DNA of 64,000 bases from a virus (Duplodnaviria > Caudoviricetes): positions 32,001 to 96,000 of IMG/VR virus record IMGVR_UViG_3300031134_000004, one strand, 5' to 3'. Below, piece after piece: positions 4,868-32,656 of this stretch (its first letter is position 1; the number at the start of each line of letters is the position of its first letter). Position numbers and translations under genes: made by a program. The notes beneath the pieces were generated by a model. It worked only from the letters and a program-made list of their open reading frames with translations. It was not told where the DNA came from and searched no databases.

Positions 4868-6196
4868 ATGAAAATCCTCGAACTCTACAGCGCAGTACTG
4901 AAGATGGCCAAGCGCCACGTCAATGAAGATGGCACCGTCTCGCAAGTCTTCGGCGGCAAGAACGAGCCATCGCTCATCAAAGGCAAACGCATCGTCGTGC
5001 CAACGCGTGAACACCTGTCCAATCCCGACTGGTCCAATCGCGTCGTGTTCCATCCGCTGTCGGAAAACATCCTGCGCGGTGAATCGGCTGTGCTGGAAGA
5101 CTTCCGTCACGCACTGAACCTGCGCATCAACTGGACGATCGGCCTGGTCGGCTTCCAACTCCTGATGATCGCAGCGTCGAACGAAGAGCACGCCAAGCTC
5201 AGTCCGTACCAATCGGAATACCTGCGCTTTGTCAAGAACGCAAACAAGACCACGCTCGAAGCGTTCAAGAAACTGATGAAGGCCATGCCACTGGACCAAA
5301 CCCAGAAGGCGTTCGTCTCGATCTATCTGAAACGTGCTGGCACCATCGGCGAGCGTCGCTATTCGCGCGTCGGCGTCGTCAACTTCCCACTCTACCAAGA
5401 GCTGTGCAAGCCTGACGTCAAGGAAATCTGGGGCGTGAAGTTCGCCAACAAGAAAGATCCGGAAACCATCAAGAAGCTGCTCGAGCAGATGATTCCGGGC
5501 ATTGACGTTGACCACAGCCACAGCCGTGGTTCCGATTCGGGCGTGGCGCCGTATCTGGACGCCTTGATGAAATCGGTGATGGCAGTCTCGGCTGACCTGA
5601 ACGCACAGATCGACCTGTTCCAAAACGTTCTCGACGCCAATAGCCCTGACGAAGATGACGATGCGAACTCGAAGAACCTGCGGTTCAACGACGAATGGGT
5701 GGAAGTCTTCGACAACCTGGACGTCATGATCCCAGAAGTGCGCATGATCCCGATGCAAGCCGGTAACGACGGCGGCAAACCAGCAGCGCCTGCCCAACAA
5801 CCGACGGCCGCTACGGCGCCGGCAGCAGCACCGGCAGGTCCACTGCCAGCAGCATTGAGTGGTAACGGCTGGAACCAGCAAGCACAACCGCAAGCGCAAT
5901 CGGTCTTTGCGCAAGCAGCTGCTGCACCTGGCCCTGTTCACACCGGTCGTGGTCTGGACTTCGAATCGCTGCTGCGCTCGAACGGCGCTCTGGCCCAAGC
6001 AGTCGGTGGTGTCTCGGCACCGCAAAGCAATGGCTGGAATGGCAACCAGAGCCAAGGCAACAATGCACCATCGTGGGCACGTCCTTCCGGTAACTCCGGT
6101 AACAACTGGAACGGCGGCGGCAATGGTCCAAGCTGGGCACAAGGCGGCAACAATGGCGGCGGTAACTGGGGTGGCGGTTACAGCCCGTCGATCTAA
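4868..6196 (+). CDS. Conserved core protein (phiKZ gp70-like) with low-complexity C-terminal tail
   Basis: 442 aa; VVFHPLSENILRGES motif; last ~150 aa are Ala/Pro then Gly/Asn/Trp-rich; synteny between picA and the beta subunit. Confidence 0.7.
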   Translation: MKILELYSAVLKMAKRHVNEDGTVSQVFGGKNEPSLIKGKRIVVPTREHLSNPDWSNRVVFHPLSENILRGESAVLEDFRHALNLRINWTIGLVGFQLLMIAASNEEHAKLSPYQSEYLRFVKNANKTTLEAFKKLMKAMPLDQTQKAFVSIYLKRAGTIGERRYSRVGVVNFPLYQELCKPDVKEIWGVKFANKKDPETIKKLLEQMIPGIDVDHSHSRGSDSGVAPYLDALMKSVMAVSADLNAQIDLFQNVLDANSPDEDDDANSKNLRFNDEWVEVFDNLDVMIPEVRMIPMQAGNDGGKPAAPAQQPTAATAPAAAPAGPLPAALSGNGWNQQAQPQAQSVFAQAAAAPGPVHTGRGLDFESLLRSNGALAQAVGGVSAPQSNGWNGNQSQGNNAPSWARPSGNSGNNWNGGGNGPSWAQGGNNGGGNWGGGYSPSI

Positions 6197-6207
6197 GTAA
6201 TTAGGTC

Positions 6208-6247
6208 GCGGCATAAAGAGAGAGGGGGTCACCCTCTCTCTTTTTTT
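6208..6247. terminator. Hairpin terminator preceded by GCGGCATAA
   Basis: gcggcataaa-gagagaggg-ggtca-ccctctctc-ttttttt. Confidence 0.75.
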
Positions 6248-6287
6248 CTTTCAAGGAGCACAAAATGTCTTTCAAGGAATACAAAAA

Positions 6288-6449
6288 ATGGCTCTCGATC
6301 GTCGTAAAATGCAATTCGTTAAAGGGGTTGTCCTTACCCGAGCACAAGAAGAAGAACGACAACGAAACGCTCGCAAGTACAAAGGCGATCCCCGTCTTGC
6401 CGCTGCCCTTATTTTTGGGCTGACTGCACTAGGTTCGCCGTATCGTTAA
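6288..6449 (+). CDS. Small hypothetical protein, 53 aa (MALDRRKMQF...GSPYR), not in ORF track
   Basis: Translated by hand; AAGGA RBS before the ATG at 6288; TAA at 6447-6449 overlaps the stop of the convergent gene. Confidence 0.5.
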   Translation: MALDRRKMQFVKGVVLTRAQEEERQRNARKYKGDPRLAAALIFGLTALGSPYR

Positions 6450-6778
6450 ATTGTACGTTTGGTTTTATGAGCGCTTGCAATGCGGGCAACTAACTGCGTG
6501 TCAGGCAACAGCAAGTTACTGATAGTGCGGTCATTGTCCGTGGGTGATGTGAAGTTATTCATCCGCATTACGATCCAATGCATGTTGTCAGGCACCTTGT
6601 GAAACGAGAGCAGACTAAAAAAATCGAACTCGTACTTATATGCTGCCGCAGGATCAATCGCAACAATTTCTCGTACATTTTGACGCAGCACCGTCATGTG
6701 CGCTTCCAACACATTCCGGAAGTCCGGGTCGTAGTAGATGGAGGCGCCTGGGTCCCGCATGAGGTTATCCACAAGCAT
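6446..6778 (-). CDS. Conserved small protein, possibly baseplate-wedge/LysM-like (T4 gp53-like)
   Basis: AAAGGA RBS before the ATG at 6778; YKYEFDFFSLL...HWIVMRMNNFTSP pattern resembles LysM-like tail/baseplate proteins. Confidence 0.55.
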   Translation of the reverse strand: MLVDNLMRDPGASIYYDPDFRNVLEAHMTVLRQNVREIVAIDPAAAYKYEFDFFSLLSFHKVPDNMHWIVMRMNNFTSPTDNDRTISNLLLPDTQLVARIASAHKTKRTI

Positions 6779-6800
6779 TTTTATTCCTTTTGGTTTCAAT

Positions 6801-6820
6801 TACATATTACTAAAGTGTAC
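6801..6820 (+). promoter_or_regulatory. Putative early (virion RNAP) promoter
   Basis: tacatattactaaagtgtac resembles the phiKZ early consensus TATATTAC and the three other copies in this window. Confidence 0.5.
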
Positions 6821-6868
6821 CGTAGTTAGGTATTCAAATAATTAGTTCTTAAAAACAAGGAAAGCCCA

Positions 6869-7117
6869 ATGAAGAAACTGAAACTGAAAGAAGGGTACGA
6901 GGTCTTTGACGAACCGATCTGCGATCCAGATGAACTCAGAGACGTGAACATTCTGATCGAGACTTGTAAGCAACAGGGCTACGAGATCGATCAGGCAACC
7001 GTGCGTGATGCATGGACTGCGCATAGTGAAGAGTACTGTGCGAGTTGGTTGAACATCAATGGTCATGGCGACCGGTTGGTGGAGATCATTCTCCACTATA
7101 CTAAAGTCGTTGAGTAG
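6869..7117 (+). CDS. Hypothetical protein, 82 aa
   Basis: AAACAAGGA RBS; ORF track. Confidence 0.7.
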   Translation: MKKLKLKEGYEVFDEPICDPDELRDVNILIETCKQQGYEIDQATVRDAWTAHSEEYCASWLNINGHGDRLVEIILHYTKVVE

Positions 7118-7146
7118 TAAAGTGTGGTACAAACAAGGAGAGCATC

Positions 7147-7314
7147 ATGAAGTCGATACCCAAGATCAAGATGGAGCCAAACAAGCTCTGCGATCCTAAA
7201 CAAATGCCAGCACTGGGCCTGAATCCTTGGGAACAGCATTGCTGCATCGGCCCACGTAAGCTGATGTTTAGTAGCTTTCATCAGCAACAAGCGCAACAGG
7301 GGAAAAGCAAATGA
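7147..7314 (+). CDS. 55-aa microprotein homologous to the N-terminus of the downstream RNAP beta subunit, not in ORF track
   Basis: AAGGAG RBS; translates MKSIPKIKMEPNKLCDPKQMPALGLNPWEQHCCIGPRKLMFSSFHQQQAQQGKSK; TGA overlaps the next ATG (ATGA). Confidence 0.75.
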   Translation: MKSIPKIKMEPNKLCDPKQMPALGLNPWEQHCCIGPRKLMFSSFHQQQAQQGKSK

Positions 7315-9446
7315 AACAACAACCCAACGAATTGCGTCGCGATTTGATGGGCGTGAACGGTCTCAATCCTTGGGACGGGCACGATTCCAGTAGCCGCAAA
7401 CAAATGTTCTCGAGCCACATCGGCCAGACTCTCGTCATCAAGGGAGCAACGGAACGTTACGTGCAAACCGGCATGGAGCGCGAATACGGCAAGTACACCT
7501 TCTCGATGAAGATGCCTGTCGATGCGGAAATCATCCGCGTCATTGATCGCTATCCACAAAAGCTCGGCCTGGATACCATCCGGATGAATCCACAAAGCGT
7601 GGTGATCTTCGAAGACTTCAATACCAAAGAAGTCGGCATGATCGACTTGCGCAAGTACTGTTCTTACCACCAGTACTTCGGTTTCGAATACCAGCAACGT
7701 GAAGCGTTATCGCGCGTGCGTGCTGGTGCTCATTTGCAAGCCGGTGAAATCCTGATGGACTCGCCTTCGGTGAAAGCCAACGGCGGCTACGCATACGGTC
7801 GTCAACTGAACATGGCGTTCATGTCGATCCCAGGCGTATCTGAAGACGGTATTGCGATCTGTGACGACGTACTGCCGCACTACCGCTTCAACACTTACGA
7901 GCACCGCGTGGGTGAATGGGGTAGCAAACGCTTTGCGCTCAATCTGTACGGGGACGATGAGAACTATAAACCGTTCCCAGACATTGGCGACAAGATCCGT
8001 CCTGACGGGCTCTTGATGTGTCTGCGCAGTTACGACCGTGATCTGTCGGTGGTCGAGCAAAACATCAACAGCATGCGCGAGCCGGACTTCACGTTCGACA
8101 AGCTGATCTACGCAGCAGGCGCCGGCGGCACCATCGTGGACATCCGTGTTCACCATGATCCAACGCAAGGCTACCTGGGCGGCATGGATGCGCAGCCGGA
8201 GAAGTACGACAAAGCCCGTCGTGAATTCTACCAGCAGATCGCCAACGAGTACTTCCGCTTGAAGCGTGAGCGGGGTGACCGTTTGCAGTTGACGCCAGAG
8301 TTTCACCGCATGGTCGTGGAAGCCTTGTCCGTTATCGACAACGATCCACAGCGCGTCATCAAGCTGTACCGTCAAGCACCGCTGGATGAATGGCGTGTCG
8401 AATTTACGATCCAGTACGAGATCACGCCAACCATTGGCTTTAAGCTGACGGACTGCCACGGCGGTAAGGGCGTTATCTGTAAGATCATGAAGCGCAGCGA
8501 GATGCCGGTTGACGAAGCAGGTAACTCTGCCGACATCATCATGGACCCGAACTCGACGATCAGCCGGATGAACATCGGCCGTTTGTACGAGCAATACATC
8601 AACGCAGCTTCGCGTGACGTGGCCAAGCAGATTCGCTTTGAACTGGGGATCGAACAAGGCGACAAGCACGCTGGACGTAAGATCGAAGAGATCGAAAAGG
8701 TCAATCCAGCTCTGGTGGACAAGGTGTGGAACTACTTGATGGGCTACTACGCCATCGTCTCGCCCAAGCAGTACGGCTGGTTCGCCAACAAGCAATATAC
8801 AAAACCCCGTGCGGAACACTTGGGTAAGATCGTCGAGACCCACATCTACCTGTACATGCCACCGGACAATGAGCCCGAGTCGGTGGACATCATCAACGAA
8901 CTGCAAAAGCACTACCGGCCAACGTATGGTCCTGTGTCGTACGTGGGCAATTCGGGCAAGCGCGTCACAACGAAGAACCCAGTGCGTGTCGGCAGTATGT
9001 ACATCATCTTGCTCGAGAAGATCGGCGATGATTGGACAGCAGTCTCGTCCGGCAAGCTGCAACACTTCGGTGTTCTCTCGCAAGTGACAAATACCGACAA
9101 GTACGCAACGCCAACGCGTAACCAAGCAATTCGTGCATGGGGCGAATCCGAAGTGCGTATCGGTGTGTCGTACGTGGGACCAGAGTTCGTGGCGGACATG
9201 ATGGACCGTAATAACAATCCAGCCACGCACCGCATGATCCTCGAATCGATCCTGGAAGCTGACAAGCCAACGGCGATTCGCATGGCGGTGGACCGTAACG
9301 TCATTCCGCTCGGTGGTGCTAAGCCACTGCAACTGGTCAAGCACATTGCTGAGACTGGTGGTTGGCGGTTTGTGTACAGGGATTACCTGCCGAACTGGCC
9401 GGACTACAATCCACAGCGTTACCAATTCAAACCAGCCTTTGTTTAA
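7311..9446 (+). CDS. rpoB: Non-virion RNA polymerase beta subunit, C-terminal part (phiKZ gp71-73-like), uninterrupted
   Basis: GLNPW...RKQMFSS, SEDGIAI, GFKLTDCHGGKGVICKI, DIIMDPNSTISRMNIGRLYE and GESE motifs of beta-family subunits. Confidence 0.95.
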   Translation: MKQQPNELRRDLMGVNGLNPWDGHDSSSRKQMFSSHIGQTLVIKGATERYVQTGMEREYGKYTFSMKMPVDAEIIRVIDRYPQKLGLDTIRMNPQSVVIFEDFNTKEVGMIDLRKYCSYHQYFGFEYQQREALSRVRAGAHLQAGEILMDSPSVKANGGYAYGRQLNMAFMSIPGVSEDGIAICDDVLPHYRFNTYEHRVGEWGSKRFALNLYGDDENYKPFPDIGDKIRPDGLLMCLRSYDRDLSVVEQNINSMREPDFTFDKLIYAAGAGGTIVDIRVHHDPTQGYLGGMDAQPEKYDKARREFYQQIANEYFRLKRERGDRLQLTPEFHRMVVEALSVIDNDPQRVIKLYRQAPLDEWRVEFTIQYEITPTIGFKLTDCHGGKGVICKIMKRSEMPVDEAGNSADIIMDPNSTISRMNIGRLYEQYINAASRDVAKQIRFELGIEQGDKHAGRKIEEIEKVNPALVDKVWNYLMGYYAIVSPKQYGWFANKQYTKPRAEHLGKIVETHIYLYMPPDNEPESVDIINELQKHYRPTYGPVSYVGNSGKRVTTKNPVRVGSMYIILLEKIGDDWTAVSSGKLQHFGVLSQVTNTDKYATPTRNQAIRAWGESEVRIGVSYVGPEFVADMMDRNNNPATHRMILESILEADKPTAIRMAVDRNVIPLGGAKPLQLVKHIAETGGWRFVYRDYLPNWPDYNPQRYQFKPAFV

Positions 9447-9491
9447 CATTGATGTCTCCCCCTTAAATTGGGGGAGATGGGGAAATCAATA

Positions 9492-11537
9492 ATGCGACGT
9501 TATTTAGCACGCCGACTACTCGACTTTAGTATCGAGGACTTGTGGTCGGTCTTGGATGGTGAATTCATCCTGATCTTTGATGATGGCGAAGTCCAGACCA
9601 ACTGGAAAGAAACCGTCTACAGCGTCTACGCTTGGGACTTCCACCGGAACTTCCCAGCTACGCCGTTGCTTACACAACACCACGTCACGACGGTCCTGGG
9701 GGGCGATCGTCTGGGTTCGGATACCCATTTGCAGTTGTTGGGCAATGCCATGTGGTCGGTCTACGATGAGTACGTGCCGTCGGGCCGGTTCCACAACACG
9801 AACTTGAGCGAAGTGCAGTTCCGTGACAAGCTGGCAGAGAAAGTGTACCAAGTCACGAACCTGATGTACAACGAACTGAGCTACAAGCTTGAAGACATGG
9901 TGGTCTCGCTCGACATCGTGGACTTCCTGGACGTTGTCAATCACCCAGCCATCAAGAAAGCGAACGACACGGTTGTCGGTACACAGCGTTCGATCGATGA
10001 ATCTTACGCAATCGGTAAAGCCACACTGCTCGATGGTGTGTCGTTGCCAGACAACCCAATCTCGCTGGCTGCGCGTTCCAAGCTCGTGAACATGAACCAA
10101 GTGCTGCAATGCATCATGTCGCGTGGTTTCTTGACCGACACCGATTCGCACCTGTTCTATAAGCCGGTGCTGCGCGGTTACGTGCATGGCATGCGCTCGT
10201 TCCACGATTCGCTCATCGAGTCGCGTTCGGCTGCGAAGTCCTTGATCTTCTCGAAGACGCCGCTGCAACAGGCCGAGTACTTCTCGCGGCGTTTGCAGTT
10301 GATGTCGCAAGTGGTCAAGAACCTACACTACGGCGATTGCGGTACGGATCGCTACACGCTCTGGCATGTGCGTGGTCCACGAAGCGAGAACGGCGAACTC
10401 AAGCGTCCGGGCGATTTGAAGATGCTGGTCGGTAAGAAATACATCGACGAGAACGGCAACCTGCGTTCGATCAAGGGTAGCGACAAACACCTGATCGGCA
10501 CCACGATTAAGATGCGTAACACGATCCACTGCGCGCATCCTGATCCGTACGGTGTGTGCTCGACCTGCTTCGGCGAACTGGCTCTGTCGATTCCGGAAGG
10601 TACGAACATCGGCCAGATGTGCTGCACGAGCTTGGCACAGAAGTCTTCGCAGAACGTGCTGTCCGTGAAACACTTGGATGGTTCGTCCGTGGTTGACGGT
10701 ATCGTGCTGGAACGGGAAGATCGTCGCTTCGTGAAGGTTGCGGCTGACGAAAACTCGTACATGCTTGCCGATGAACTGAAAGGTTCCCAAGTACGCCTGG
10801 TGCTGCGCGCAGAAAACGCAGCGAACATCACGGACATCAAAGACGCCAAGGACGTCAGCGAACTGAACATTACGCGTGTGTCGGAATTGGCAGAGATTGG
10901 TCTGCAAGTGACGAACCAAAAAGGCGTGGTGTTCGAGCCTGTGCAAATTAACGTCAGCCTCGGTCGCCGCTTGGCCAGCATGACGTACGAAATGCTCGAG
11001 CACATCCGTAAGCACGGCTGGACGATTGATGATCGTTCGGGTAACTACATAGTGGACATGACGCAGTGGGATTGGAGCAAACCGTTCCTGACCCTGCCGC
11101 TGAAACACTTTAACATGAGCGACCACTCGCGTGACATCGCTTCCATGCTCGAATCGTCGGTCGATAAGCTGCAAGAGCGCGACCAAAACAAAGCATCGCC
11201 TGACGCTGCCCTGATCGAGTTGTTTGACCTGGTCAACGACAAGCTGACGGTGAACGTGGCGGTACTGGATGTTGTGCTGTACGGCAGCATGGTGGTGTCG
11301 ATCGAGAAAGGCGACTACAGCTTGCCAAAACCGTGGACGAGTTCAAACTTGGGTGTCATGAAGTTGTCGATGGCGTATCGCAGTGGTGCATCTGCCATGG
11401 CGTACGAAGGTCACCGCGACTTCATCACCGATCCGTTGAGCTACGTGAATACCAACCGCATTGATCACCCAATGGATGGCGTCTTGATGCCAGCCGAAGT
11501 GATCATGCCTAAGCGCGTGGAGTATAACTTCACATGA
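9492..11537 (+). CDS. rpoC: Non-virion RNA polymerase beta-prime middle subunit (phiKZ gp74-like)
   Basis: Bridge-helix SRSAAKSL...AEYFSRRLQL, DCGT, Zn site CAHPDPYGVCSTCFG, trigger-loop NIG...QKSSQNVLSVKH; ORF track starts at 9468 but the ATG at 9492 is more likely. Confidence 0.93.
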   Translation: MRRYLARRLLDFSIEDLWSVLDGEFILIFDDGEVQTNWKETVYSVYAWDFHRNFPATPLLTQHHVTTVLGGDRLGSDTHLQLLGNAMWSVYDEYVPSGRFHNTNLSEVQFRDKLAEKVYQVTNLMYNELSYKLEDMVVSLDIVDFLDVVNHPAIKKANDTVVGTQRSIDESYAIGKATLLDGVSLPDNPISLAARSKLVNMNQVLQCIMSRGFLTDTDSHLFYKPVLRGYVHGMRSFHDSLIESRSAAKSLIFSKTPLQQAEYFSRRLQLMSQVVKNLHYGDCGTDRYTLWHVRGPRSENGELKRPGDLKMLVGKKYIDENGNLRSIKGSDKHLIGTTIKMRNTIHCAHPDPYGVCSTCFGELALSIPEGTNIGQMCCTSLAQKSSQNVLSVKHLDGSSVVDGIVLEREDRRFVKVAADENSYMLADELKGSQVRLVLRAENAANITDIKDAKDVSELNITRVSELAEIGLQVTNQKGVVFEPVQINVSLGRRLASMTYEMLEHIRKHGWTIDDRSGNYIVDMTQWDWSKPFLTLPLKHFNMSDHSRDIASMLESSVDKLQERDQNKASPDAALIELFDLVNDKLTVNVAVLDVVLYGSMVVSIEKGDYSLPKPWTSSNLGVMKLSMAYRSGASAMAYEGHRDFITDPLSYVNTNRIDHPMDGVLMPAEVIMPKRVEYNFT

Positions 11538-30600: not shown

Positions 30601-31062
30601 ATGCAAACGAAATTTATCTCCTTTCACGATCAGGCCAACCGCTTGATTACCGACGTCCTGGCGCGTTCGAACATCTTGGCTGCAGCCATTGGTCGCGCCG
30701 TCGCAAACGTTCAGCCACTGCCCTCCTCGCCCGTTGAAAGTGCATCCGGTTACTTTAACACCCATGCGCTGCCACAACTGCGCACGATCGTGTCGGAGTG
30801 GAACGAAAACATGACGGTCAACACCGCCATCTGCACCGAGTACGCTCGCATCTTCTGGCTGCTGCGCTACAATGCGGCGCACCCGAACTCGCGTCCACTG
30901 TACGACAGCCCGTACGACTTCTTCTGCACCACGATGGGTGTGAAAAGCTACGTAAGCGATGAGCAGTACGCGTTCCTTAACACCCACAAGGAAACCATCC
31001 TGGCCCTGTCCTCGAGCGTCTCGCGCATGCTGTGCGCAGAGCAGGAGCAGCGCAATGGCTAA
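30601..31062 (+). CDS. Conserved phiKZ-like protein, 153 aa
   Basis: TAGGA RBS; lies in the structural block. Confidence 0.7.
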   Translation: MQTKFISFHDQANRLITDVLARSNILAAAIGRAVANVQPLPSSPVESASGYFNTHALPQLRTIVSEWNENMTVNTAICTEYARIFWLLRYNAAHPNSRPLYDSPYDFFCTTMGVKSYVSDEQYAFLNTHKETILALSSSVSRMLCAEQEQRNG

Positions 31063-32656
31063 AGCACCTCGCCGTGGTCTCATGGCGATGGAAGCGATAG
31101 ACGGTGTTACGGATCTGGGGTACTCGGTCAACAAGCTTGGCCAGATTGCCCCACTCGTACCAATGGAAAACGCCGCCTATGTGCAGCCGTTGTATCCTGA
31201 GCATTTCGATCCTGGTGTTAAGCCAGGCATGAAGCTGTTTGCTAACGGCACCGACAATGAAGGGACAGACTTCTTCGCTGTGCCGATCATGGAAGACGAA
31301 GAGCTTGATGTGGCTGAGAACCTCGACGGCATTGCCGCACTCGAGTCGCAGTTGCAAGACTTGCTGTACCTTGAAAACGATTTGCTCCAAGCTGGCGGGA
31401 TGAACAAGCACTTTGCCATGGAAGCGCAGAAAGTCATTCCCAACTTCGGTGGTGTCCCGATGGGCTACTACACTGAAGCGACGACCGCTACCCGTTACAA
31501 GGTTTCGCTGGAAGAACTCTCCCGTGGTGTCTGGGCGGCTATTGCTGCTGGTGTGGCAGTTGTGATTGCGGCCATTGGCAAATTCATCTTCTGGATGATG
31601 GGTCGTCGTAACAAAGGTGACTCCACGCCAAGTAGCGGTGAGGTGACCAATGCTGATGTGAAAGCGGCTGTGCAATCGGCCAAAGAAATGCCAGCAGAAG
31701 TCAAAGCCATGGCCAAGTCGATGGATGTCGGGCAAAAGGCGGTTGTCAAAGCAGAAGGCATGCTCTCGAACAACCCCTTGACGCTTAAGAATGAACACGG
31801 CAAGGAATACACCGTGCATTCGTTCCAAGACATCATCAACAATGTCTTTACGGACCAAGAGCGCTATGGTCGGGCTAAGCAGTTCTTCGACAACCGTGAC
31901 GCTTACACCCACGACATCATCAATGGGGGCGAGTTCTCCAAAAAGATGGCGGCGCTCTCGCAGAGCATGGGGGCGGTCTCGTCGGCACTGTCGATTAAGG
32001 CAGAGACGGTTGAAGGCGTGATTCGTCGCGACTTGGGTTCGCACAGCGTGTCGGATGAAATGAAAAACAATTCGACATTAACGACAGTGGGTAAAGTCAT
32101 TGAAGTTACGCTCATGGGTCGCACCATGACGCTGCGCGAATTGGCTGACCATCTCTCTGACGAGCGTAAAGAGTTGCGTGAGAAAACCATCACCAACCCG
32201 ATCATGTTCGACAAGCTCTTCTCGACCATGCACAAGACGTACGAATCGCACACGATTGACACCATCATGCGTGAAGCTGGTTCGCTCATCGAGTGCCTGG
32301 ATGCGGTGCGTACCCGTCTGGAAAAGATGAAGGGTGCTTCGCGTAATCTGTCAACCGATGGCGTGCCTGGCGCGCTGACGCAAGACGTGGGTGAGAAGAT
32401 CCGTCAAACGCTGTCGAGCTTGCAAGAAGAAGTCATTGCTCTTAGCATGATTGCAGCAGAGATCACGCTCTTCTTCCGTACCTTGGAAACCTTGGCGAAC
32501 CACGCCTTGGGCTTTGGTGTGGAAGTGGTGCGTAAATGCTCGCAACTCATGAAAGCGCAAAAGCAAGACATCCCTGATGGTTGGAAAGAAGTGCTGGAGG
32601 AATTGAACGAACAGCACAAAGCCATCACTGCGGGTTACTTTAGCCTGAAACGTTAA
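31055..32656 (+). CDS. Proteolytically processed virion head protein
   Basis: CAGGAG RBS before the ATG at 31055; AMEA, ALES and SLEE sites; N-terminal region paralogous to 29155..30576. Confidence 0.72.
   Translation: MAKAPRRGLMAMEAIDGVTDLGYSVNKLGQIAPLVPMENAAYVQPLYPEHFDPGVKPGMKLFANGTDNEGTDFFAVPIMEDEELDVAENLDGIAALESQLQDLLYLENDLLQAGGMNKHFAMEAQKVIPNFGGVPMGYYTEATTATRYKVSLEELSRGVWAAIAAGVAVVIAAIGKFIFWMMGRRNKGDSTPSSGEVTNADVKAAVQSAKEMPAEVKAMAKSMDVGQKAVVKAEGMLSNNPLTLKNEHGKEYTVHSFQDIINNVFTDQERYGRAKQFFDNRDAYTHDIINGGEFSKKMAALSQSMGAVSSALSIKAETVEGVIRRDLGSHSVSDEMKNNSTLTTVGKVIEVTLMGRTMTLRELADHLSDERKELREKTITNPIMFDKLFSTMHKTYESHTIDTIMREAGSLIECLDAVRTRLEKMKGASRNLSTDGVPGALTQDVGEKIRQTLSSLQEEVIALSMIAAEITLFFRTLETLANHALGFGVEVVRKCSQLMKAQKQDIPDGWKEVLEELNEQHKAITAGYFSLKR

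Follow-up and report, generated by a model that had tools for sequence, protein, structure and literature searches.

A conserved small gene resembling the start of the adjoining split RNA polymerase beta gene in phiKZ-type jumbo phages

Introduction

Eukaryotic microProteins of the LITTLE ZIPPER and Id types are small paralogues of a single interaction module that titrate the partners of the respective full-length proteins. Jumbo phages of the phiKZ type encode two multisubunit RNA polymerases (RNAPs) that are assembled from the products of split beta and beta-prime genes, with no alpha or omega subunits to serve as assembly platforms. Here, we analyse a 64,000-nucleotide stretch of DNA (hereafter, the window), bases 32001-96000 of the 224,654-bp IMG/VR viral contig IMGVR_UViG_3300031134_000004, in which a 55-amino-acid (aa) open reading frame (ORF; 7147..7314, plus strand; hereafter, the micro gene) immediately precedes, and resembles the beginning of, a 711-aa gene (7311..9446, plus strand; hereafter, beta-C) that encodes the C-terminal half of beta in the non-virion RNAP (nvRNAP). 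The source is an uncultured phiKZ-type jumbo phage known from metagenomes, and near-identical DNA is present in phyllosphere, plant and biofilm metagenomes. The nearest named phage is Burkholderia phage FLC9, with 60% identity in beta-C. Positions are those of the window, except that the prefix G000:C1 denotes positions in the contig.

Like the microProteins, the micro gene product is a short, separately encoded, retained paralogue of a fragment of a larger, complex-forming protein. Unlike them, it is encoded by a phage, its parent is a subunit of a multisubunit RNAP, and the copied part is a junction/active-centre strand rather than a dimerisation domain; furthermore, whereas microProteins titrate partners, a dominant-negative or chaperone action of the micro protein is only proposed. 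The gene also shares features with translationally coupled leader ORFs, being short, preceded by a strong Shine-Dalgarno sequence and, in the window lineage, joined to an essential gene through an ATGA overlap, but the coupling is not conserved whereas the amino acid sequence is. Paralogy to the downstream gene is not usual among leader ORFs. Stand-alone RNAP modules of phages and bacteria, such as free proteins of the alpha C-terminal domain (alpha-CTD), are similarly separately encoded pieces of polymerase that, as we presume for the micro protein, compete for or sense partners. The free alpha-CTD proteins, however, copy folded domains of the host polymerase, whereas the micro gene reproduces ~40 residues of a split polymerase that belongs to the phage itself, and is located beside its parent. 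T7 Gp2 and T4 AsiA are small phage proteins that bind RNAP, are not homologous to polymerase segments and act on the host enzyme; the micro protein resembles them in being small, encoded early and presumed to target the transcription machinery.

With the N-terminus of phiKZ gp71-73 (7OGP chain C), the micro protein shares homology over ~37 residues, but it is a free-standing protein of 55 aa without the rest of the hybrid-binding domain and the catalytic elements, and it contains three one-residue insertions and a family-specific CIGPR motif. A search of the literature on the structure, assembly and import of the phiKZ nvRNAP revealed no account of a protein of this kind. What is new here is that the copied fragment comes from the split polymerase of the phage itself and that the copy adjoins its parent gene.

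A fragment paralogue of beta-C

The 711-aa gene product matches the Pfam family PF00562 (E 7.6e-18) and, over residues 7-689, phiKZ gp71-73 (PDB 7ogp_C; E 6e-157). The homology to gp71-73 is full-length, including the Rpb2 domain 6/DPBB region, and identifies the product as the C-terminal half of beta in a phiKZ-type nvRNAP; homologues of beta-C are encoded in 313 phage records. When the micro ORF product was compared by BLASTP with the first 70 residues of beta-C, 17/37 aligned residues were identical, with 2 gaps (E 5e-7). The Smith-Waterman score of the two sequences is 65, compared to 20.4 +/- 3.9 for 2000 shuffles, none of which reached 65 (z ~11). The alignment with the beta N-terminus on which the preliminary description of this locus was built thus stands. 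The homology ends 8 codons before the end of the ORF, and no other frame continues the similarity. The micro ORF is a fragment paralogue, not a polymerase subunit: it has none of the catalytic hybrid-binding domain that in beta-C follows the initial ~40 residues.

At the nucleotide level, the identity between the micro gene and beta-C at the three codon positions is 0.60/0.63/0.29 (Fisher p = 0.002), with third positions at the random level, so that synonymous positions have indeed diverged, as originally noted. This pattern bears directly on the possibility that a partial 5' duplication or a recombination left the micro ORF as a scar without function, which stays open by chance or only to allow ribosomes to reach the ATGA. 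We consider such a scar improbable, and a recent duplication of the phage's own beta-C followed by neutral decay is rejected by the codon-position pattern.

The residues that the micro protein shares with beta-C are those that are conserved in beta-C itself. Among the 12 positions with at least 85% conservation in the beta-C N-termini, the micro protein of the window retains 11, and the twelfth is changed from Ser to Cys. Alignment with 14 beta-C orthologues shows that the retained invariants are P-N, G-L-N, H, R-K-x-M-F and H..Q; the window protein also keeps G-L-N-P-W. The core of the micro protein, H-C-C-I-G-P-R-K-L-M-F (residues 31-41; 7237..7269, plus strand), delineated by alignment with the orthologue described below, corresponds to H-D-S-S-S-R-K-Q-M-F of beta-C and to 10 residues of E. 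coli beta.

The copied segment of beta-C comprises residues 5-39 (7323..7427, plus strand), at the start of the hybrid-binding domain and at the split junction. A profile built from 15 beta-C N-termini (A4) aligns to E. coli RpoB 665-708 (E 0.0018 in a direct search of that single sequence), in support of the earlier proposal that the segment corresponds to the active-centre region of bacterial beta; in a search of the PDB sequences, the beta-C N-terminus profile reached only phiKZ and AR9. We take E. coli beta 665-708 to line the active centre and the RNA-DNA hybrid and to include R678 and the Rif cluster III position. From the position at the split junction and from what is known of RNAP structure, we infer that the copied segment is an inter-subunit contact.

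An orthologue in a second lineage

When 1.84 billion protein representatives were searched exhaustively with HMMER, using the 55-aa sequence as the query, two matches were obtained, one of which is a near-identical variant. The other is a 58-aa protein (P0006; E 4.5e-5) that is encoded on three ENA contigs of a second lineage (L025, L026 and L027), where it immediately precedes beta-C. This beta-C gene shares 70% identity with that of the window and is the nearest relative that we found. The micro gene was called by gene callers on independent contigs. On L025, a minus-strand gene similar to phrog_3455 is followed by a promoter-like motif, AAGGAAG, the 58-aa ORF, the double stop TAATAA, a 41-nt spacer and beta-C; the spacer holds a second AAGGAAG, a separate Shine-Dalgarno sequence for beta-C. 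Neither the ATGA overlap nor ORF82, an additional ORF that precedes the micro gene in the window, is present on L025.

Both micro proteins carry the motif C-I-G-P-R-K-L-M-F, including a one-residue insertion, which is missing from 14/14 aligned beta-C N-termini, and in both, the conserved His is preceded by an additional aromatic residue (SSFH and GNYH, vs SSH in beta-C). The L025 protein retains eight or nine of the 12 conserved beta-C positions. The two micro proteins align to each other with a score of 109, compared to at most 83 and 69 for either of them against any beta-C N-terminus. This higher score, together with the shared derived features, indicates a single micro family that predates the divergence of the two phages. 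The micro gene thus originated from a duplication of part of beta-C, at its 5' end, before the phages of the window and of L025 diverged.

The second lineage also separates what is conserved at this locus from what is not. The preliminary description had the micro gene translationally coupled to beta-C, with its own ribosome-binding site (RBS). In the window, both elements are present: the Shine-Dalgarno sequence AAGGAG (7135-7140, plus strand; AAGGAAG in L025) is located 6 nt before the ATG, and the stop of the micro gene overlaps the start of beta-C in ATGA (7311-7314, plus strand). The coupling is, however, a feature of the window lineage only, given the TAATAA, the 41-nt spacer and the separate beta-C Shine-Dalgarno sequence of L025. 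Because the ATGA coupling is not conserved, it cannot account for the conservation of the micro gene, which is unlikely to be a pure coupling device. The TAATAA and the spacer also exclude a micro/beta-C fusion produced by frameshifting or bypass. The three cysteines that the micro protein was said to have gained fared similarly: C33 alone is kept in the L025 lineage, C32 is replaced by Ser, and C15 has no cysteine counterpart, so that the suggested redox or metal sensing by all three is weakened.

Beyond these two lineages, we detected no further members of the family by tblastn against 50,697 phage records, by word-index search with the single sequence or a profile, by a degenerate IGPRKLMF pattern or a profile scan of IMG/VR, or in the ESM Atlas; the micro ORF had no Pfam or PHROG match, and none of the relatives that were fetched by beta-C from IMG/VR and metagenomes has a second copy of the N-terminus. 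In FLC9, RP31, PA7 and ~15 IMG/VR or metagenome relatives, with beta-C sequences 43-63% identical to that of the window, beta-C follows the minus-strand phrog_3455 gene, and no second copy of the beta-C N-terminus was found in these ~18 more distant relatives.

In PA7, a 39-aa annotated ORF (FDI90_gp311; L022:1368-1487) overlaps the start of beta-C by 8 nt. It was examined as a candidate homologue of the micro gene and rejected, with no similarity to the beta-C N-terminus; small ORFs upstream of beta-C may be common in the phiKZ group for other reasons.

Purifying selection on the micro gene

Between the window and L025, the nonsynonymous divergence (dN) of the micro gene is 0.51, close to that of the phrog_3455 gene (0.50) and ~25 times that of the first 40 codons of beta-C (0.02), the true N-terminus. 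The micro gene therefore evolves at about the rate of an ordinary accessory phage protein. Nevertheless, the coding constraint is clear. The proportions of nonsynonymous and synonymous differences are 0.37 (pN) and 0.95 (pS, which is saturated). The comparison of frame 0 with frame 0 scores 109, whereas none of the eight remaining forward frame pairs scores above 33. When the two genes are aligned as nucleotides only, identity at the three codon positions is 0.72/0.83/0.33; an alignment guided by the proteins gives 0.58/0.69/0.29 (Fisher p = 8e-5). The 11 codons of the core H-x-C-I-G-P-R-K-L-M-F differ between the lineages by 6 synonymous changes and 1 replacement. The non-coding DNA that flanks the micro genes in the window and L025 could not be aligned by blastn.

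The codon-position pattern, the frame specificity and the 6:1 ratio in the core indicate a coding, presumably translated gene under purifying selection rather than a scar. A few observations do speak for the scar, which could, for instance, be connected with the insertion of accessory genes such as ORF82: the micro gene is missing from most relatives, the same genome contains other fragment copies of large genes, and the site is prone to recombination, as seen in the insertion of ORF82, the replacement of its body in one variant and the repetition of a module consisting of an RBS and ATGAAG. However, a scar would not explain why the ORF remains intact, with a strong Shine-Dalgarno sequence, in a lineage where the flanking non-coding DNA no longer aligns, why the substitutions are 3-periodic, with the excess of synonymous changes in the core, or why all three codon-level indels are in frame. 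The earlier suggestion of a retained duplicate is borne out by the 58-aa orthologue in the same position upstream of the 70%-identical beta-C and by the difference between pN and pS. We conclude that the micro gene is very probably a real, conserved protein-coding gene, and that it probably encodes a working small protein. Fragment paralogues of this kind, located beside essential genes and left unannotated, are usually dismissed as duplication debris, but can be real genes.

Another origin that had been considered involves a group I intron or homing endonuclease, with the micro gene as the relic of an aberrant homing event that left a duplicated exon end. Conserved active-centre segments are typical targets of homing, and beta-C genes of the phiKZ group do carry an intron, as seen from the two pieces produced by tblastn and from the PA7 annotation. 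That intron, however, is located mid-gene, after ~residue 394 in PA7 and phiKZ, far from the N-terminus. No Rfam intron was detected in 6100-9600, there was no match to HNH, GIY-YIG or LAGLIDADG endonucleases in ORF82 or the micro ORF, and Pfam and PHROG searches revealed no endonuclease domain in the neighbouring genes. Given that an intron relic would also leave the purifying selection unexplained, this scenario seems highly improbable, and this option of the preliminary description is not supported.

Possible roles in polymerase assembly

The N-terminal strand of beta-C, the first element after the split in beta, would dock onto the N-terminal half of beta beside the active-site module of beta-prime. 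Given that the micro protein retains the invariant residues of this strand, the simplest reading is that it occupies the same site. Translated early, alongside the polymerase subunits, the free peptide would sit on the beta N-half and/or beta-prime, at the surface where the initial ~40 residues of beta-C normally dock. This surface would be the junction of the split beta beside the active centre, equivalent to E. coli beta 665-690. There, the peptide could serve assembly as a placeholder or holdase, or it could modulate polymerase assembly or stoichiometry in the manner of a microProtein; in the window lineage, the stop of the micro gene would also pass ribosomes to the start of beta-C through the ATGA. 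We put the probability that the micro protein mimics the junction/active-centre strand of beta-C in this manner, as a placeholder, chaperone or titrating modulator, at roughly 0.4.

Several observations weigh against such mimicry. Compared to beta-C, the micro gene has three single-codon insertions and a change of an invariant Ser, so that the protein may no longer fit the original docking site. The net charge and both termini differ between the two orthologues. The family is known from two lineages only, and the ~18 relatives that possess the same split polymerase but no micro gene show that it is not needed for basic assembly. The signal of selection itself comes from a single deep pair of lineages; the differences within the window lineage, assessed on contigs of four runs and on L023, a contig 98.7% identical to the window that we used for variant comparison, are too few to be informative (1 synonymous and 1 nonsynonymous difference from L023 in the micro gene). 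The predicted structures do not shift the balance either way. A complex prediction for the micro protein and the beta N-half of the window phage (P0007; G000:C1:135458..137065; 34% identical to the PA7 gp123 homologue, E 1e-93) had a score of 0.00, with a predicted local distance difference test (pLDDT) value of 25 for the partner, and gives no verdict; an AlphaFold2 model of beta-C from an 8-sequence alignment had a mean pLDDT of 49, too poor for a fold search or for the structure of the N-terminus.

Conservation and purifying selection establish that the micro protein has a function but not which one. It is possible, although we regard this as doubtful, that the protein has a different job, as a decoy for a host or rival factor able to recognise the copied segment, as a partner of nearby-encoded machinery for import into the phage nucleus, or as a cis-acting leader peptide that tunes the translation of beta-C. 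The family core (CIGPRKLMF, with the extra aromatic residue) is unlike that of every beta-C examined, a hint that the binding partner may have changed, and the gene is located directly upstream of beta-C in both lineages. Import of the nvRNAP relies on subunit interactions and dedicated factors (preprint 10.64898/2026.09.21.753271), which we also count in favour of another job. Conversely, the retained residues are exactly the invariants of beta-C, which is most simply explained by the same contacts, and a role as a cis leader is difficult to reconcile with L025, where beta-C has its own Shine-Dalgarno sequence in the 41 nt past the double stop.

A more far-reaching and tentative reading, for which we see less than an even chance, is that a subgroup of jumbo phages of the nucleus-forming type has a dedicated microProtein that copies the junction/active-centre strand of its split beta and controls how, when or where the split nvRNAP assembles. 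Such control would be exerted by capping the beta N-half until the arrival of beta-C, by stopping mis-pairing with the paralogous subunits of the virion polymerase, or by gating import. If this is the case, it would be the first example in any virus of a fragment paralogue that regulates the assembly of a multisubunit RNAP. How the pieces of a split polymerase find each other ties into their import into the phage nucleus, and a 55-residue peptide that copies the strand at the split point of beta provides a concrete handle on this assembly. Should the peptide block or chaperone assembly, the same principle could be used for peptide inhibitors or probes of RNAP assembly in phages and bacteria.

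The gene neighbourhood

The left border of the beta-C locus in all relatives is the phrog_3455 gene, a conserved divergent neighbour that in the window encodes 117 aa (6446..6799, minus strand; PHROG match E 9e-30) and has homologues in the same place in FLC9, RP31 and L025. In the second lineage, the phrog_3455-like gene (L025:1372-1710, minus strand) shows 8 nonsynonymous and 0 synonymous differences (codons 20-91) between L025 and L026/L027, contigs that are otherwise ~99% identical; this could be either a hypervariable patch or an assembly error at low (~2x) coverage.

Reading of the sequence next to the phrog_3455 gene reveals a promoter-like motif, ACATATTACTA (6802..6812, plus strand). 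In the relatives, the motif, (c)ACATATTACTAA, is found 60-120 nt upstream of beta-C or the micro gene: it precedes beta-C in FLC9, L005, L006-8, L015, L017 and L019, and the micro gene in L025. We presume that it is the early promoter of the nvRNAP operon. The next gene of this operon after beta-C encodes the N-terminal half of nvRNAP beta-prime, similar to gp74 (9468..11537, plus strand; phrog_3015, E 1.5e-192). A strict form of the motif, [AT]CA[TC]AT[TC]AC[TA]A, occurs in only three copies in the contig (G000:C1:25334, 38802 and 137095, all on the plus strand), one of them at the micro/beta-C locus and another 30 nt past the beta N-half gene. Polymerase operons may share it as an early-promoter element.

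In the window, ~440 extra bases, which contain ORF82 and the micro gene, separate the promoter-like motif at 6802 from beta-C. ORF82 (6869..7117, plus strand), located between the motif and the micro gene, is a lineage-specific ORFan insert with no match in Pfam or PHROG and no detectable homologue. In comparison with L023, it has 4 nonsynonymous and 2 synonymous differences, vs 1 nonsynonymous and 22 synonymous in the flanking core genes, and a variant from a plant metagenome (run X5) has 211 unrelated bases in place of positions 6896-7103. ORF82 is a fast-turnover accessory insert, and its site looks like a hot spot for accessory-gene exchange. Similarity of its N-terminus to the copied segment (EPICDPDEL vs EPNKLCDP, with a 10-nt exact repeat) raised the possibility of a third copy, but was marginal (shuffle p 0.03-0.06), and this candidate was dropped.

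The leaders of these genes are themselves repetitive. An RBS-plus-start module, AAACAAGGA(A/G)AGC...ATGAAG, precedes both ORF82 (6850-6874) and the micro gene (7128-7152), with 20/25 identical positions, and a weaker version precedes beta-C (7292-7316). In addition, TACTAAAGTGT (6808) is found again as TAGTAAAGTGT (7115). These repeats point to a duplication of the leader at the time of the ORF82 insertion.

Other partial copies of large genes in the same genome

Two further ORFs of the contig resemble parts of larger phage genes. A 63-aa ORF (G000:C1:16198..16389, plus strand) resembles residues 2-34 of a 565-aa protein (46% identity over 39 aa, E 4.5e-5); the latter (phrog_29544) is encoded at 30959..32656 of the window, 46 kb from the 63-aa ORF, and is adjoined by a 473-aa paralogue. 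An 88-aa ORF outside the window (G000:C1:105563..105829, plus strand; L032:764-1030) is a further fragment paralogue of an essential phage gene: over residues 42-85, its product shares 51% identity (E 9e-11) with residues 654-698 of the major head protein, a 722-aa protein (G000:C1:131123..133291, phrog_3231) in which this segment lies close to the C-terminus. The N-terminus of the 88-aa ORF product, MSRRLFLKGLAGLFVAPAIVKA, resembles a twin-arginine (Tat) signal peptide.

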